NCBI GenBank assembly: GCA_965222225.1
Contig: CBDCTK010000002.1
Location: 3,264,001 to 3,328,000, forward strand
Length of the DNA stretch: 64,000 nt
Reading direction: 5' to 3'
DNA from: Candidatus Poribacteria bacterium
GTDB lineage: Bacteria; Poribacteria; WGA-4E; JAJDTR01
The translations under genes and the position numbers were made by a program. The notes under the pieces were generated by a model. The model made no database searches. It saw only the letters and a list, made by a program, of their open reading frames with translations, and was not told where the DNA came from. Position 1 is the stretch's first letter; every line of letters begins with the position of its first letter. Positions 562-63,738 of this stretch are shown piece by piece.

Positions 562-658
562 GGATTAAATGGGCGGATAGTTCAAGCGATTGAATAAGGA
601 TCGACTGGGCGAATAACGAATGTTCGAATGAACGGACAGTGAGTGCGATAGAGCTCCC
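562..658 (+). repeat. GATCAA...GATAG...TCCC element, four stuttered copies
   Basis: GGATTAAATGGGCGGATAG / TTCAAGCGATTGAATAAG / GATCGACTGGGCGAATAACGAATG / TTCGAATGAACGGACAGTGAGTGCGATAGAGCTCCC. Confidence 0.7.
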
Positions 659-1072
659 ACCAAGATTCCCGCCAGTTTGTGGGTGCCTACCTATAACATC
701 GCCACCCGGTTGCACCGACAAAACTGTCAACTTCCGCCGTAATAGCGACGCATCCCATCCGTACACCTGTTACCCCGTTACCTTAGGCATATTTCCAAAA
801 TAATCTCGGAGCCTGATGGTGTCTACCTTTGCTCGAATTGGCTTGGGAACCATGTCAATCGTCAGAACTCCGATGCCGACTGAATTCTGTCCATTACATT
901 GAGTTTATTAGGAAAGATGTCTCTTCTTTGAGGACACTCAAGAGACAAGAACAGGATTAGGAAAAAATTCTCTTTGAATCCTAGCAAACATCAAAACATT
1001 CGTGTTTATTGGCAGTAGGCAACGGTTAGTCAAGCCCACTATACCTCGTCGCTGAGGGTTGCCTCCGTCTTG

Positions 1073-1140
1073 CGCTCCAGCGGAGTGCTATGTTTGTAGC
1101 AAGATTGTGTCGCCTTCTCCCGCTCCAGCGGAGCGGAATG
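1073..1140. repeat. Pair of REP-like hairpins CGCTCCAGCGGAG(T/C)G
   Basis: Two direct copies of a short palindrome, related to the GCCCCAGCGGGGCG hairpins elsewhere in the window. Confidence 0.55.
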
Positions 1141-1310
1141 TGGATACCCATGGCGATTTAGAGACAACAGGACACCCCTCGCTAATGGATTAATAGGAAC
1201 GAGGCGTATATTTGCGCCAATGTATGGGCGCTTAAGCCAAGAATTCGGCTTCTCTAGATTAAATTACCGGAGGATTGTTGAAAGGAAAAAAGCGGTAGGA
1301 GGGATGGAAC

Positions 1311-1372
1311 GTAGCACATATCTTCCGACAGGAAATTCAGCGTAGCCCGCCTGTCGGGAAGATACGTGCTAC
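1311..1372. repeat. Long GTAG-terminated inverted repeat downstream of glnK (REP-like or terminator)
   Basis: GTAGCACATATCTTCCGACAGG ... CCTGTCGGGAAGATACGTGCTAC. Confidence 0.55.
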
Positions 1373-1386
1373 CGTCGTTCATCAAG

Positions 1387-1725
1387 TTAAATGGCTTCAG
1401 GCCCTTTCTCGCCTGTACGGATGCGAATGGTCTCATCTGCTGGCAACACGAAGATTTTGCCATCGCCAATTTTGCCCGTCAATGCAGACTGCTGCACTGC
1501 CTCTATCACGTTGTCAACATTCTCTTCCGCGACCACGATTTCGAGTTTCAACTTGGGCACAAACTCAATGGTGTATTCACTTCCGCGATATAGCTCTGTG
1601 TGTCCTCGGCTCCTTCCAAATCCCCGGACCTCACTGACCGTCATCCCGTGAACTCCAACGCCGGTAAGAGCTTCTTTGACTTCATCAAGCTTGAAAGGGC
1701 GGATAATGCATTCTAATTTTTTCAT
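1387..1725 (-). CDS. glnK: Nitrogen regulatory protein P-II (GlnK/GlnB)
   Basis: 112 aa: [21 protein letters not shown]-loop YRGSEY (Tyr51), [11 protein letters not shown]; next to amt genes; start trimmed to the ATG after a GGGAG RBS. Confidence 0.95.
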
Positions 1726-1938
1726 GAGGTTTATCTCCCTTTTAACCATAGCACAATTTAGGAGGTCTATGATCCACCACAATATCAAAATGTCACATGT
1801 AGGCCGCGTTTCCAAGATTGGGAGACACATCGATCTTGATACCAAGATTGAAAAGTCGGCCTAACATGTGGCAGAACTGTGAAGGGCTGAACTTTAACTT
1901 TCGCGCATCTTCCTACGGCACACGATACGACACAATGG

Positions 1939-60198: not shown

Positions 60199-60324
60199 GA
60201 TGAAATCTCCTTACAAGTTAAATTGAATTGTGTGTGATGGGGCACATTTTGTGTCATCACTGGCTAACTGCAACGACGTATTTCCCCGCATTGTTGAAAT
60301 AACAGGTGATTCATGATTAAGCAG

Positions 60325-60353
60325 ATTATAACCGAAAAACGGCGATATGCCAA
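60325..60353 (-). promoter_or_regulatory. sigma70 promoter of pspA
   Basis: TTGGCA-17-TATAAT. Confidence 0.55.
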
Positions 60354-60489
60354 CCCCAAACCGTAGCGGCGAACTCTTCCAAAACGCCGTACGGCGTTTT
60401 GTAGGGTGGGCACTTCCCACCAACCTTTGAAAGCGCCGTAAGTGAACAGCTTCAGATTTGGATTGTTGCAAGATTTTTGCCGTTTCCCT

Positions 60490-62562
60490 TCAAAGCAGCG
60501 TGCCCAACTCCCCAATATCCGCCGTGGGTGTTTGGCAGGCGTAGTTTTCACAAACGTAGACAGTCGCTTTTCCATTAATTTGCGTCTTGCCAGCCGTTAA
60601 CGGCATCAACCCATCGGCAGAGGATTGATCGTTGCTTGAATCTAGCAGCGCCAAGATTTTATTCGGCAGAAATCGACTGTGAATCTCCTGCAAAATAATC
60701 TTCGTGTCATCGGCATTCTTTTCGCCAACAACCGCGATTTCCCGAGGCGCCGAAAGCAGAAACTCTAGTTCACACAACAGTTGTCCCGATCCGGATGGGG
60801 CATTTTCTATTTGCTGATAATAAAGGCTCAGCGCTTGGACAGCCTTTGCGTGGAAGTCGGGACGATCGAGATGCTTGGCGAGTCTCAGCAAGCTATGAAC
60901 CGCCATTGCTGTCCCGGACGGAGTCGCACTGTCATACGCGGACTTGGACTGAACAATGAGTGATTCGTGCGCTTTGCCTGTGAAGAAAAAGCCGCTGCTC
61001 GATTCATCCCAAAACTGTTCAATCATGATCTGCGTAAGCCGTTCCGCCTCTTGCAACCAACGTGGATTGAAACTGGCTTCGTAAAGCGCGACCAAGCCGG
61101 CGGATAAGTAAGAATAATCCTCAAGATATGCGTTCAAGTGGCTCTTTCCCGCGCGGTACGTGCGCAGCAACAAGCCATCGGCTTGGGACAGTTCGGTCAA
61201 AATGAAATCCGCCGATTTCTCAGCCGCTTCAAGATAACGCCGGTCATTAAGCAGTTGGTATCCGAAAGCCATGCCTCGAATCATAATACCGTTCCAACTG
61301 GTCAATATTTTGTCGTCCAGACCGGGTTTGATTCTATCTTCCCGCACCTCAAATAGTTTCTGTTTTCCTTCGCGAAGGATTGCCTCCAATTCGGCTTCAT
61401 CTCGGCGCAATTTCTTGGCGAATACATCCAACGGTGTTTGTATGTGAAGGATGTTCTCCCCTTCAAAATTTCCCGATTCAGTAATATCGTAATATTCGCA
61501 GAAAATCTCCGCGTTTTCCCGCCCCAGAATCCGATCGACCTCATCTAACGACCAGACAAAGAACTTGCCCTCAACGCCTTCGCTGTCCGCATCCTGCGCC
61601 GAGTAGAATCCACCTTTTTCCGCATCGTACATTTCGCGCAGGACGTAATCAAGCGTCTCCTTGGCAATTTCACGATAAAGCGGTTTCTTCGTCGCTTGAT
61701 AGGCTTCCAGATAAGCGGCCACGAGTTGTGCGTTGTCGTAAAGCATCTTCTCGAAGTGCGGGACCAGCCAAACGGCATCGGTTGAATAACGGTGGAATCC
61801 GCCGCCGAGTTGATCGTACATACCACCGAGCGCCATTTTCTCCAGTGTCAATTCTGCCATTTCCAACGCATTGGGGTTCCCCGTCCGCAGCCAGTAGCGC
61901 AGCAGAAAAGGCAATCCCATGCTTGGCGGAAACTTGGGCGCGTTCCCAAAGCCGCCGTATTGCGAATCGAAGGTCGAACGATAGTGCCGAAAGGCTCCAT
62001 CCAGGAGGTCGGTTGTTAGGTCGTGTCCGTGGTCGCTTACACTCGACATCTGAGTAAGATGCTCCACAATCTGTTCGGCTTGTTTTGCGATATCACTTCG
62101 CCGGTCACGGTAGGCAGTGGAGACAGCTTGCAGGACGTTTGCAAATCCGGGGCGTCCGTGACGGTCATCGGGCGGGAAATAGGTGCCGCCATAGAAAGGC
62201 TGGAGATCGGGCGTGAGGAACATCGTCATCGGCCATCCCCCTTGCCGCGTCATGATTTGGACGGCGTTCATGTAAATCTCATCCAGATCGGGGCGTTCCT
62301 CACGATCGACCTTGATGTTGACAAAATGCTGATTCATGATGGCGGCAATCCCTTCGTTTTCAAAGGACTCGCGCTCCATTACATGACACCAATGACAAGC
62401 GGAATAACCGATACTCAAAAGGATTGGTTTGTCCTCTCCTTTGGCACGATCCAACGCTTCCTCGCCCCACGGATACCAATCCACCGGATTGTGGGCGTGC
62501 TGTAGAAGATAGGGGCTAGTTTCATTGCTGAGTCTGTTGGTATGTTTCAGCGTATCCGACAT
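60490..62562 (-). CDS. Thioredoxin-domain YyaL/SSP411 family protein
   Basis: [58 protein letters not shown] motifs. Confidence 0.95.
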
Positions 62563-62621
62563 AAGGTTCCTTTCCATCCGGCTTGACTTCGACGTAGGTT
62601 CACTCAGTTCGCATCAAATTC

Positions 62622-63560
62622 TCACTCATCACTCTCCGCTCGTAACGCGACATAGCTCCGATGACGGATGGGACTTATTGTTCCCGCATTCACCGCTTCG
62701 ATGACCGCGCATCCCGGCTCGCCAAGATGAGAGCAATCGTTGTAATGACAGTTGCCAAGATAGGGTTCCATTTCCGGGAAATAATGCTCGAGGTGTTCCG
62801 TATCAATTCCCCATAGTCCAACTTCCCGAATGCCCGGGGTGTCCGCCACTTCGCCGCCAAAATCAAGCGGAAATAGCTCAACGAGTGTGGTTGTGTGCTT
62901 GCCCTTTTCCGATTTTTTCCCAACCTCCCCGACGCGCAAGCCTAAACCGGGTTGAACGGCGTTTAGAAGACTCGACTTGCCCACACCGGATGCTCCGACG
63001 ATGACGCTAAATTTTCCCTCCATTACCCGTCGGAGATCACAAACCCCCGGATACCCCTTGGTACTTGTATAAATCACCTCATAGCCGAGCGAACGATAGG
63101 TGCCGAAGAGCGATGTTACCCTTTCCTGTTCCTCCGAATCAATGAGATCCATTTTGTTCAGGCAAACGACGGCGTCCATTCCGCCGTTCTCCGCCAAAAT
63201 CAGAAACCGATCCAAAAAGCGGAATTTCACATCGGGCTGACGTGTCGAGATGATAACAATCACCCGATCTGTGTTGGCAACGATGACCTGCTCAACTGTC
63301 TCACGCTTACCCGGATATTGGCGCGAAAACTTTGTCCGACGCGGGAGTAACTCTTCAATGACGCCCTCTTCATCATCGAGTTGAGTGAAGGTTACCACAT
63401 CGCCCACGGCAACCGGATCCGCGTAAATCCGCCTGCCTATCTCGGAACGTTGTTCACGTTTGATGCGTCCGCGCAGAGTGCAACGGAGAGTAAGATTATC
63501 GCGCTGAACGTCGTAAAATCCAGATGTCGCGCGAATGACTCGCCCCTGAATTTTATCCAT
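62622..63560 (-). CDS. rsgA: Ribosome small subunit-dependent GTPase A
   Basis: NKMD, GASGVGKS, GKHTT, DTPG, Zn-binding CHYNDCSH..EPGC. Confidence 0.95.
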   Translation of the reverse strand: MDKIQGRVIRATSGFYDVQRDNLTLRCTLRGRIKREQRSEIGRRIYADPVAVGDVVTFTQLDDEEGVIEELLPRRTKFSRQYPGKRETVEQVIVANTDRVIVIISTRQPDVKFRFLDRFLILAENGGMDAVVCLNKMDLIDSEEQERVTSLFGTYRSLGYEVIYTSTKGYPGVCDLRRVMEGKFSVIVGASGVGKSSLLNAVQPGLGLRVGEVGKKSEKGKHTTTLVELFPLDFGGEVADTPGIREVGLWGIDTEHLEHYFPEMEPYLGNCHYNDCSHLGEPGCAVIEAVNAGTISPIRHRSYVALRAESDE

Positions 63561-63629
63561 ATTTAATTGACTTCAATTTCGGTTACACCTCTCTCGTAGA
63601 ACGGGATGAACGATTTGCAAGCACTAAAC

Positions 63630-63738
63630 GATCAACTGAGTGGATAACGAAGGCGATAGAAGATCCCATAGTGAGTGCGATAGGAATCCCCTGACCACCA
63701 TTTTTTGAAGAGCGCGATAGAACTTCCATAGAAATCTT
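63630..63738 (+). repeat. GATCAA...TCCC element with stuttered tails
   Basis: GATCAACTGAGTGGATAACGAAGGCGATAGAAGATCCC-ATAGTGAGTGCGATAGGAATCCC ... GCGCGATAGAACTTCC-ATAGAAATC. Confidence 0.8.

Follow-up and report, generated by a model that had tools for sequence, protein, structure and literature searches.

A dispersed repeat of about 37 nt

The window, by which we mean the whole stretch of 64,000 nt of Candidatus Poribacteria DNA that was analysed, contains a dispersed repeat whose unit of about 37 nt consists of GATCAA, a hairpin, GCGATAG, a spacer of 3-4 nt and TCCC. A search for the pattern GATCAANNGANNGRWYANNGANNGCGATAG with up to three mismatches yielded 14 matches, and none of 100 dinucleotide-preserving shuffles had any. 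Thus, the count of about 14 scaffold-fitting loci on both strands given in an earlier note on this DNA was confirmed. On the plus strand the matches start at 622, 13053, 13188, 15499, 18218, 25164, 44173, 59235 and 63630; on the minus strand they span 25195-25224, 25589-25618, 26767-26796, 28724-28753 and 35530-35559. A covariance model run with filters off recovered the same 14 copies and one marginal match within a gene (E = 0.8). The copies had been described as intergenic, and indeed no Pfam-matched gene contains any of the 14; the sole gene overlap is that of copy 13053 with an 84-aa ORF lacking a Pfam match. Some previously listed positions belong to the element in another way than as copy starts: 13363, 25152, 25559, 26749 and 28706 are tail fragments or ends of minus-strand copies, and 562 and 18202 lie beside a piece consisting of a head alone (580-602) and a head that was interrupted (~18201-18217), respectively. 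The features are as follows, the four variable dinucleotides being called slots 1 to 4.

580..602, +: degenerate head-only piece GTTCAA gc GA tt GAATA ag GA tc, 3/4 slot pairs
622..658, +: full copy with 2 scaffold mismatches, slots AT/AC/GT/GT, tail GCGATAG-agc-TCCC
13053..13102, +: full copy (13053-13089) directly 3' of GTAG, then an extra tail GATAG-taaa-TCCC; degenerate tail-like pieces follow up to ~13175
13188..13225, +: decayed full copy with 4/4 slot pairs kept (first GA is AA; ACGATAG; tail TTTC)
13364..13374, -: lone tail fragment ATAGAGATCTT
15499..15536, +: full copy within a REP-like hairpin (GTAGGTTGGGTTGAAC...GTCAAACCCAAC), at its apical loop
18201..18305, +: nested array; outer head (~18201-18217) broken after its loop, inner full copy (18218-18254), outer remainder A-GG-GCGATAG-taaa-TCCC, then two further tails
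25152..25224, both strands: palindromic dimer of a reverse-complement tail (25152-25162), a plus-strand copy (25164-25201) and the head of a minus-strand copy (25202-25224), the central tail region being common to both copies
25559..25618, -: full copy (25582-25618) with extra tails downstream on its own strand (25571-25581 and 25559-25570)
26749..26819, -: nested pair with the outer head at 26797-26819, a complete inner copy (26760-26796) directly behind slot 4 and the outer tail (ATAG-aga-TCCC) at 26749-26759
28706..28776, -: second, paralogous nested pair of the same architecture with an identical inner copy, a segmental duplicate of the 26.7-kb locus
35523..35559, -: full copy in a REP-like hairpin (GTAGGGTGC...) between two co-oriented genes
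44171..44209, +: canonical full copy GGGATCAA...GATCCC, hosted by a composite repeat (AAAGCCCCAGAGCGG/.../ACAGGTAGCA) that reads GGG-GCG-ACAGG when empty
59235..59271, +: full copy of the GGGATAG variant within a REP-like hairpin loop (GGGCGGG...CCCCGCC), antisense to both neighbour genes
63630..63738, +: array of a full copy (63630-63667), the 3' part left of an interrupted copy (up to ~63690) and two more tails (63714-63738)

The scaffold comprises 19 to 22 near-invariant positions at fixed spacing, with the variable positions at set places, as had been noted from the outset. The invariance of spacing holds in the core, and the tail spacer is either 3 or 4 nt. Because the exact scaffold pattern was used to find the loci, scaffold conservation is partly given by construction; among the non-exact model matches (30/150) it still amounts to 77-100%. 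The 180 distinct copies carry 71 slot combinations, and the first slot base, said to be nearly never T, is T in two of them. Canonical copies have the short inverted ends GGGATC/GATCCC; these 6-bp termini, reported earlier as inverted repeats, are conserved in sequence, but a helix between them is poorly supported (64.6% of cells pair, with no real covariation).

Hairpin covariation and strand asymmetry

The slots covary as the strands of a hairpin. In the window, 55/56 cells pair in the combinations slot 1/slot 4 and slot 2/slot 3, so that the statement that the interior is not palindromic was wrong: the slots are antiparallel-complementary, and the interior is a hairpin broken by GA/GA mismatches. 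Its core reads NN-GA-NN / G-N3-A loop / NN-GA-NN, the tandem G·A being conserved. Among the 180 distinct copies, 691 of 720 slot cells pair (mean of shuffles 453, maximum 478), and the top three column pairs in mutual information are predicted slot pairs. All four slot pairs have changed on both sides, and 96.9% are paired. Sliding the partner by 1-3 columns leaves at most 60% paired, and the slide that reaches this value has 1 double-change cell compared with 230. The slots are probably constrained in their pairing alone and not in their sequence.

The covariation is asymmetric between the strands. Wobble cells of the G·T/T·G type (86 in the 180 copies) far outnumber those of the A·C/C·A type (13), which indicates that only one strand needs to fold. 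Moreover, the pair types are limited by position: a pyrimidine is found at position 7 in 162/180 and at position 11 in 178/180 copies, and a purine at position 10 in 141/180 and at position 21 in 160/180. The context is 5'-Y-GA-R-3' on both strands, which favours sheared tandem G·A pairs. No stable hairpin is predicted by nearest-neighbour folding (z-scores between -1.6 and +1.0), in which 1/4 top strands has the covariation fold as its minimum free energy structure; the fold therefore depends on a partner or on non-canonical stacking.

The two helices and the tail do not vary independently (mutual information between the helices 0.58 versus 0.27 in shuffles, 0/500 as high). Thus, there are subfamilies, and new copies derive from earlier ones. 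Within a tandem repeat (L053), 5/11 variable positions of a copy have changed, compared with ~4% divergence in the remainder of the unit; all these changes are transitions that keep pairing. This single case hints that slots can change faster than by plain drift.

Mobility, nesting and distribution

The element is mobile, as its presence/absence polymorphism demonstrates. At orthologous sites of two MAGs, one locus is empty (L047) and the other filled (L057), with a net gain of 34 nt and replacement of GCG. Within the window, the filled REP at 15483 is 35 nt longer than the empty ones at 18844 and 44336, and the copy at 15499..15536 replaces the loop triplet ACA, which is kept in the empty REP copies. 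Of the 146 non-nested copies, 41 have an empty paralogous counterpart under strict and 75 under looser matching, many of these empty sites being paralogous copies of multi-copy host repeats and the clean orthologous or within-window cases being few; gene conversion between host repeats may thus also have spread filled alleles. Of the strict pairs, 40/41 have a net gain of 33-36 nt, and the junctions show that 3 nt (14 cases), 2 nt (10) or 4 nt (9) were replaced. No target-site duplication was found at the compared filled and empty sites; instead, about 3 nt are replaced, which to our knowledge fits no known transposition chemistry.

The insertion sites are often loops of REP-like hairpins or the interior of resident copies. 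Direct-orientation nesting inside a resident copy applies to 40/186 copies and inverted dimers to 10/186. Nested arrays differ between related genomes; for instance, orthologous arrays with flanks of ~97% identity contain 3 versus about 7 heads, and the array at 18201..18305 is orthologous to an array (L039) whose inner slots differ at 7/8 positions. The earlier view that the copies stem from repeated insertion events is therefore upheld by the filled and empty sites and by the differing arrays. The upstream tetranucleotide is not conserved, the commonest among 180 being GTAG (17), CGGG (13) and GAGT (12). GTAG(G) lies just upstream on the same strand of 44/186 copies; in the opposite orientation, ~3-4 of 16 flagged cases are real. 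Relative to flanking ORFs, 30 copies are co-oriented and 21 anti-oriented. The strand bias relative to replication is weak.

In a public scan, 131/131 loci among the matches listed came from Candidatus Poribacteria MAGs, representing 13 assemblies that include complete chromosomes. The presence in independent assemblies, suggested earlier as a check, rules out an artefact of one assembly.

Possible mechanisms and related repeats

We consider it most probable (roughly 0.75) that the repeat is a mobile DNA element, non-autonomous and very small at ~37 nt, with a one-strand hairpin core. The hairpin would comprise two 2-bp helices either side of the conserved tandem G·A/A·G and a G-N3-A cap, bordered by conserved single-stranded flanks, and would matter on one strand. 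Slots drifting by compensatory changes within a fixed scaffold would account for the look of a fixed scaffold with hypervariable slots. New copies would be pasted into intergenic DNA, preferably into REP-like hairpins, at the apical loop or in the upper stem, or into two fixed spots within resident copies, swapping out ~3 mostly G-initial nucleotides of the target without target-site duplication. Repeated insertion into resident copies would build the nested arrays, and loss of heads would leave the runs of orphan tails. We infer that the folded strand is the substrate of a trans-acting, probably ssDNA-active enzyme and that the fold is kept by selection for continued mobilisation rather than by a host function.

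Within this mobile-element reading, a more specific mechanism is possible but rather doubtful: the element could be a relative of REP/REPIN-RAYT or IS200/IS605 (PATE) systems, with a Y1 HUH transposase gene elsewhere in the genome supplying the enzyme that cuts and joins its single-stranded hairpin. The strand-specific hairpin, the lack of target-site duplications, targets in REP-like loops that would be single-stranded if extruded, and the co-orientation with the GTAG lead of host REPs (44/186) would agree with this. Furthermore, Poribacteria genomes do encode such an enzyme, an IS200/IS605 TnpA (L009:1191-1700; Pfam E = 7e-28; NCBIfam 78.9 bits, cutoff 55) with inverted hairpin repeats on its flanks; a nested copy lies in one of these. 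However, these repeats, GCTCCAGMGGAGCG, are distinct from the 37-nt element, and the RAYT model scores 38.8 on this Y1 protein, under the cutoff of 80. IS200/IS605 elements insert precisely 3' of a fixed target without loss, whereas here target nucleotides are replaced and no conserved tetranucleotide lies directly 5' of the insertions. Moreover, this TnpA is the only Y1 gene among the 259 ORFs flanking copies, which also include three with DDE transposase domains and one rve integrase; among these 259 ORFs, no neighbour recurs, no enzyme is linked to the element and no RAYT gene with flanking copies was found. No mobilising enzyme was found among the 45 window ORFs.

The earlier note favoured repeated de novo synthesis of the copies, in which a templated but error-prone polymerase (RT, DGR, retron-like or protein-templated) would fill the slots with random bases. 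The many slot combinations, host sites that can hold copies with differing slots, the excess slot change in L053 and orphan tails resembling 5'-truncated copies fit such a process, but it is largely refuted by the covariation and can hardly be sustained: random writing gives no complementary slots, whereas 97.3% of slot cells pair as compensating changes (63.4% in shuffles). Neither position-limited pair types nor the linkage between helices and tail would be expected, the L053 changes are all pairing-preserving transitions, and the variation is not specific to one base, as a DGR-like pattern at A would be. The suggested look for a reverse transcriptase beside the copies yielded none among the 45 window and 259 flanking ORFs; together with the linked slot subfamilies, this leaves de novo synthesis unsupported. 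The same note's alternative, a protein-binding site, is plausible only if a folded single strand is recognised. As a duplex site for a nucleoid protein or regulator, under selection and multiplied by ordinary duplication, it is very improbable. The near-invariant scaffold would suit such a site, as would ATCAA at the 5' end, which presumably resembles the IHF consensus core. However, a duplex site leaves the intrastrand complementarity and the tolerance of G·T but not A·C unexplained, both of which point to a folded single strand as the recognised form, and ordinary duplication does not explain precise 34-36 nt insertions into unrelated sequence.

That the repeat is a structured RNA motif serving the host (protein-binding or kink-turn-like, in UTRs), its many copies kept by selection on transcripts, is improbable, although one-strand covariation with G·U-type wobble is a classic RNA signature and all copies are intergenic. 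The tandem sheared-type G·A beside a 2-bp stem with a pentaloop cap resembles the kink-turn U4/U4atac 5' stem-loop, and the best Rfam alignment on a copy is indeed to this family (RF00618; 25158-25194, 15.1 bits versus a gathering threshold of 53, E = 4.6). No Rfam family reaches threshold, however, in keeping with the initial failure to recognise a family. The kink-turn-defining 3-nt bulge is missing because slots 1/4 pair directly beside the G·A pairs, so that the helix runs on past them; the element is bacterial, multi-copy and mobile, and the likeness is structural only. Moreover, single-sequence folding is not significantly stable, the orientation to genes is near-random, with the 59235 copy antisense to both neighbours, and copies break into one another and into other repeats and vary in presence at orthologous sites.

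The closest analogue may be the small dispersed repeats SDR4-6 of Nostocaceae cyanobacteria, which Elhai and co-workers reportedly described in 2008. These are said to be 21-27 nt long, to form a conserved hairpin with compensating changes in its stem, and to insert into each other and into other short repeats. Like the Poribacteria element, they are far smaller than MITEs, dispersed, intergenic and non-coding. The Poribacteria element is set apart, judging from descriptions, by its phylum, its own scaffold, the conserved tandem G·A and its greater length of 37 nt. According to one study, SDR5 inserts into HIP1, and no SDR-like repeat was found outside Nostocaceae among HIP1-rich cyanobacteria (PMC5861425); HIP1 is no part of the Poribacteria element, GCGATCGC occurring just 4 times in the window.

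REP/REPIN-RAYT repeats are likewise short, many-copy, intergenic hairpins in which stem variation keeps pairing and a single-stranded hairpin is thought to be recognised (PMC3116915); REPIN-like inverted doublets also occur here (the 10/186 inverted dimers). In contrast to the long GC-rich palindrome of REPs, the stem has just 2 + 2 bp with obligatory G·A mismatches; the element lacks an own GTAG-type lead and inserts into REP-like hairpins rather than being one. It shares a preference for palindromic units or REP hairpins with insertion sequences such as IS1397, which are full-length, transposase-encoding elements, whereas the 37-nt unit has no coding capacity. With MITEs and IS200/IS605-derived PATEs it has in common short inverted ends and a non-autonomous nature that would depend on an enzyme in trans, but it is about 3-10 times smaller, replaces ~3 nt instead of duplicating its target, and is a single hairpin without left-end and right-end structures or a fixed target tetranucleotide. 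Abundant in the genomes of Candidatus Poribacteria, which are sponge symbionts, the 37-nt element is among the smallest mobile elements known.

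Occurrence and genomic setting

The earlier note had described a dispersed element with a fixed scaffold and variable dinucleotides (slots 1 to 4), and this description was confirmed. With up to three mismatches allowed, the pattern matches 14 times in the window and not once in 100 dinucleotide-preserving shuffles. A covariance model built from 40 copies and run with filters off recovered the same 14 copies and one marginal intragenic match. What else the earlier note had counted proves to be fragments of tails, pieces with a head alone, or the distal ends of copies on the minus strand, the head being the 5' part through slot 4 and the tail the stretch (G)ATAG-N3/4-TCCC. 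All copies in the window are intergenic; the sole apparent exception overlaps an 84-aa ORF without Pfam match. The genes of the window are ordinary chromosomal ones, encoding ammonium transporters, P-II, a 2-oxoacid dehydrogenase complex, TPR, HEAT and FG-GAP proteins, an Eco57I-like restriction-modification enzyme, PspA and RsgA. The following features adjoin copies:

32005-35514, minus strand: large single-polypeptide restriction-modification enzyme (Eco57I methylase, N6_Mtase and TaqI_C specificity domains); the element copy 35523-35559 lies directly upstream of its start
26749-26819 and 28706-28776, minus strand: near-identical nested element pairs of a segmental duplication, beside paralogous FRG-domain and TPR genes
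27104-27898, 27935-28468 and 29065-30432: genes of this duplication, adjoining the nested pairs

A public scan in which the slots and the loop were left free returned at least 131 loci, and among the matches listed all 131 come from Candidatus Poribacteria MAGs (13 assemblies, several of them complete chromosomes). Together with the window they gave 186 distinct 90-mers, which contain 180 distinct 42-mers. The exact search pattern partly builds scaffold conservation into this set; in the 30 of 150 model matches that are not exact pattern matches, the scaffold columns are 77-100% identical. One of the loci, L039, is orthologous to positions 16129-18086 at 84.7% identity, and thus the window derives from a related poribacterium. 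Three adjacent DUF1670 genes also adjoin copies (L012:3428-4030, L013:2232-3041 and L013:3041-3943).

The earlier note had recognised no family, and none was found in Rfam at three sensitivities. Rfam 15 gave no match over the whole window at the gathering threshold, two matches at E <= 5 of which neither lies on a copy, and no family at gathering score in a 601-nt stretch with three copies searched at E <= 10. In that stretch, the best matches overlapping a copy were snoR30 (17.5 bits; gathering score 60) and U4atac (15.1 bits; gathering score 53). 'Poribacteria-1' is a candidate RNA motif, and no Rfam match bore this name at the three sensitivities; the term was also unmatched in a literature search. 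The element had no match in a plasmid collection, literature searches with a 14-nt string of the element and with Poribacteria plus REP returned no match and nothing relevant, respectively, and the parts of the Poribacteria single-cell genome paper reached by a term search held no passage about repeats.

The hairpin core and the descent of the copies

The variable slots are complementary to each other, slot 1 to slot 4 (helix 1) and slot 2 to slot 3 (helix 2). Within the window, 55 of 56 slot pairs are Watson-Crick or G·T. Among the 180 distinct 42-mers, 691 of 720 pair, compared with a mean of 453 and a maximum of 478 in 1000 column shuffles, and the three column pairs with the highest mutual information are exactly predicted slot pairs. 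Columns 6 and 22 pair in 172 of the 180 copies and columns 7 and 21 in 171, and in 40 copies the inner helix was 96.9% paired, with two-sided changes at all four pairs. In the alignment of the 150 best of 173 model matches (148 distinct), 97.3% of the slot pairs can form, compared with 63.4% in shuffles, and double changes number 230 versus 45; sliding the partner by 1-3 columns leaves at most 60% paired and 1 double change at that slide. This alignment was fitted to the model and leans towards structure, whereas the pattern-based count of 691 of 720 is free of that bias. Thus, complementarity and covariation define the core as a hairpin of two base pairs, tandem GA opposite GA, two further base pairs and, as its cap, the five-base loop G-N3-A. 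Among the 180 copies this loop most often reads GAATA (74), GGATA (60), GGACA (13) or GAACA (11).

The GA columns are conserved to 97-100%. Moreover, pair types are restricted by position: the pairs before each GA and beside the loop are nearly always pyrimidine-purine, giving 5'-Y-GA-R-3' on both strands, a context in which tandem G·A pairs tend to be sheared, in DNA and RNA alike. G·T or T·G pairs outnumber A·C or C·A pairs by 86 to 13 in the 180 copies, so that it is the strand shown here, rather than its complement, that has to fold. By contrast, the ends GGGATC/GATCCC, which the earlier note had read as 6-bp inverted termini, are unsupported as a helix: their sequence is conserved, with the two outer G weakly so, but only 64.6% of the positions pair and there is no covariation. 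Nearest-neighbour folding did not single out the hairpin (z-scores -1.6 to +1.0), and for only one of four top strands was the covariation fold the minimum-energy fold. The case for structure therefore rests on covariation, and a bound protein or non-canonical stacking is probably required for folding.

To account for the variable slots, the earlier note had suggested repeated synthesis by an error-prone templated polymerase. This proposal is unsupported, since the slots pair, the states of helices and tail are linked, and no RVT domain or reverse transcriptase occurs among the 45 ORFs of the window or the 259 ORFs flanking copies. The mutual information between helix 1 and helix 2 is 0.58 versus 0.27 in shuffles, and that between helix 1 and the tail is 0.91 versus 0.71, with none of 500 shuffles as high in either case. 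Such linkage indicates subfamilies, as expected if copies descend from copies. The lack of a nearby reverse transcriptase in these ORFs counts against a DGR or retron, and DGRs also differ in their pattern of change: their variation is confined to template adenines, whereas the variable columns of the element mix G, C, A and T in paired combinations. One observation points in the opposite direction to descent by copying. L053 contains three tandem 330-bp units, and the copy in the third is different at 5 of its 11 variable positions, against a divergence of about 4% elsewhere in the unit; all five changes are transitions and pairing is kept. This single case could be explained by slots under relaxed constraint, by template-switch correction inside the hairpin or by the copy having been replaced. 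Tandem duplications of intergenic blocks each carrying a copy were seen both at L053 and at L050/L051, where the matches lie about 1975 bp apart.

Insertion, nesting and turnover

The element is mobile, as is evident from orthologous, within-window and paralogous filled and empty sites, from nesting and from turnover. In the orthologous loci L047 and L057, which come from two MAGs and are near-identical around the site, one clean event has occurred inside a resident copy: GAATA-GCG-AGT-GCGATAG became GGATA-[37-nt copy]-AGC-GCGATAG, which adds 34 nt net. The window itself has the REP-like hairpin GTAGGTTGGGTTGAAC-ACA-GTGAAACCCAAC in empty form near 18844 and 44336, whereas near 15483 the copy 15499-15536 stands in place of the loop triplet (net gain 35 nt). 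Both empty and filled forms also exist for the multi-copy host repeats AAAGCCCCAGAGGG-GCG-ACAGGTG, GTAGGCGGG-GC-ATCTTGCCCCGC, GTAGGGTGC-GCA-CTGCGCACC and GCGCTCCAGCGGA-GCG-CAATG.

For a systematic comparison, 40 nested copies of the 186 were set aside and 146 were examined. An empty counterpart was found for 75 of these with at most two mismatches per 14-nt flank and for 41 with at most one. In the strict set of 41, the replaced stretch measures 3 nt in 14 cases, 2 nt in 10, 4 nt in 9 and 1 nt in 3, the net gain is +34 in 14, +36 in 12, +35 in 10 and +33 in 4, and G is the first replaced base in 39. Target-site duplication was absent from the filled/empty comparisons: 1-4 nt are replaced and nothing is duplicated. 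Two models of the junction were rejected. If the element consisted of two halves around a retained target GCG, sites with GCA or ACA as target should not give GCGATAG in the copy, but they do. Had a circle recombined site-specifically at a GCG core, the product would be permuted, with the tail before the head, which is not what is seen.

Copies are also inserted into each other. Among the 186, 29 lie directly after slot 4 of another head, the outer copy resuming at (G)ATAG past the inner TCCC, 11 lie directly after the loop of another head, and 10 are paired tail to tail as palindromic dimers, the second copy being placed at the same GC(R) site of the opposite strand. The orthologous arrays L024 and L031, with flanks about 97% identical, contain 3 and about 7 heads, respectively, and the array at 18201-18305 shares its architecture with its L039 ortholog yet departs from it at 7 of the 8 inner slot positions. 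In several arrays tails outnumber heads, from which we infer nested insertion followed by loss of tandem heads.

The commonest hosts are several families of REP-like repeats, present in the window and at many loci, each with a GTAGG lead and a GC-rich hairpin (for example GTAGGGTGCGCACTGCGCACC, GTAGGCGGGGCATCTTGCCCCGCC, GTAGGTTGGGT...ACCCAAC and GGTAGGTGCGGTTTCTAACCGCACC). A longer composite repeat has two separate hot spots for the element. Host repeats in the window are:

37042-37062 and 30764-30784, minus strand: REP-like repeats
15483-15493, 18844-18854 and 44336-44346, plus strand: REP-like repeats
about 30650-30790, minus strand: composite repeat GTAGGGTGCGCACTGCGCACC-AGCCTCTAAAAGCCCCAGAGGGGCG-ACAGGTGTGTAGCAG..., empty, overlapping an 80-aa ORF without Pfam match (also present at L015, L019, L033, L040 and L130)

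Copies are co-oriented with the GTAG lead of their host hairpins: 44 of 186 copies are closely preceded by GTAG(G) on their own strand, and only about 3-4 of the 16 cases flagged as opposite proved genuine.

With respect to genes, orientation is close to random. Crude ORF calls around 124 copies placed 30 co-oriented and 21 anti-oriented copies in unidirectional regions, 31 in divergent and 17 in convergent regions and 13 inside ORFs, with 12 lacking a flank. A cis-regulator bound in the transcript was rejected on this ratio of 30 to 21; mutual interruption and insertion polymorphism likewise argue against a transcript-bound regulator. We therefore favour a mobile element that is recognised in single-stranded form. 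A replication-strand bias like that of IS200/IS605 is weak in these copies: the strand whose local GC skew is negative carries 60 copies versus 40, a count weakened by clustered copies, and one suggestive strand domain in OZ244829 comprises clustered copies with boundaries chosen afterwards. The window has negative GC skew in 14 of 16 4-kb bins over 1-64000 and probably lies within one replichore; 10 of its heads are on the plus and 7 on the minus strand.

Relation to known systems and meaning for Poribacteria

By the defining features tested, the element is not a REP, MITE, PATE, kink-turn RNA, DGR or CRISPR. It shares with REPs and the REPIN-RAYT system a hairpin-forming imperfect palindrome whose stem varies with pairing preserved. 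However, it has no GTAG-like lead of its own, GTAG preceding only 17 of 186 copies and there belonging to the host repeat. MITE insertions differ by their target-site duplication; the GGGATC/GATCCC ends of canonical copies show the partial pairing noted. Like the kink-turn of the U4/U4atac 5' stem-loop type, the element has tandem G·A/A·G pairs beside a short stem (here 2 bp with a 5-nt loop), but the 3-nt bulge 5' of the tandem G·A is absent and slots 1/4 abut it. A CRISPR array has identical repeats at regular spacing with unique spacers between them, whereas copies of the element are scattered over both strands and, where clustered, adjoin or interrupt one another.

Of the genes that the earlier note had proposed to look for beside the element, a reverse transcriptase or HUH enzyme is absent from the 45 window ORFs, as is any transposase, and no gene recurs beside copies among these and the 259 flanking ORFs. 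The latter include a single Y1 gene, an IS200/IS605-family TnpA at L009:1191-1700 on the plus strand (Pfam Y1_Tnp E = 7e-28; NCBIfam 78.9 bits, cutoff 55), which remains below the cutoff of the RAYT model (38.8 versus 80). It is bracketed on both sides by a different hairpin repeat, inverted GCTCCAGMGGAGCG...CATGT, one of which bears a doubly nested element copy. The same hairpin pair occurs without a gene at 1073-1135 (plus strand) in the window and at many loci, which looks like an IS200-type element with miniature derivatives. The predicted TnpA of L009 shows that single-strand HUH transposition exists in these genomes, without tying that enzyme to the element. Elements of the IS200/IS605 type insert directly 3' of a fixed motif of four or five nucleotides, and no target base is lost. 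The 4-mers upstream of our insertions are diverse and target bases are replaced, findings that do not fit this mechanism and also set the element apart from the IS200/IS605-derived PATEs with their fixed 5' target motif.

The closest likeness is to the small dispersed repeats (SDRs) carried by Nostocaceae cyanobacteria, which Elhai reportedly described in 2008 as very small, with a hairpin kept by compensating changes, nested in other repeats and polymorphic between relatives. The 37-nt element resembles them in size, compensating hairpin, nesting and insertion polymorphism, a likeness of behaviour that does not imply homology, and differs in phylum, length, scaffold and the obligatory tandem G·A. 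A cyanobacterial origin or a link to HIP1 was rejected, as GCGATCGC occurs only 4 times in the window and the listed scan loci (at least 131) are all from Poribacteria. The element would be a second, unrelated example of SDR-like behaviour. Little mobile DNA much shorter than 100 nt has been documented; SDRs are the one well-described case known to us, and we know of no mechanism established for them since 2008. The element and SDRs may together represent an undescribed class of 'nano-transposons', 20-40-nt units with a protein-recognised single-strand hairpin that are pasted into hairpin loops with replacement of about 3 target nt by an enzyme other than DDE, Y1 HUH or a known type of reverse transcriptase; we hold this reading tentatively, at a probability of roughly 0.3.

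For annotation it matters that copies fragment REP families and, by their covarying hairpins, mimic structured RNAs. More generally, the element is a worked example of how a fixed scaffold with hypervariable slots can come down to nothing more than structurally constrained base pairing. It occurs in complete chromosomes, obtained from long reads, of a phylum that has not been cultivated, with clean orthologous insertions and a sharply defined recognition module, the tandem G·A hairpin and two conserved flanks. Thus, the question is approachable, the enzyme by phylogenetic profiling and the 37-nt substrate by biochemistry. If the nano-transposon reading is true, copies that enter REPs and one another at a high rate would make the system a major driver, overlooked so far, of intergenic turnover in Poribacteria.
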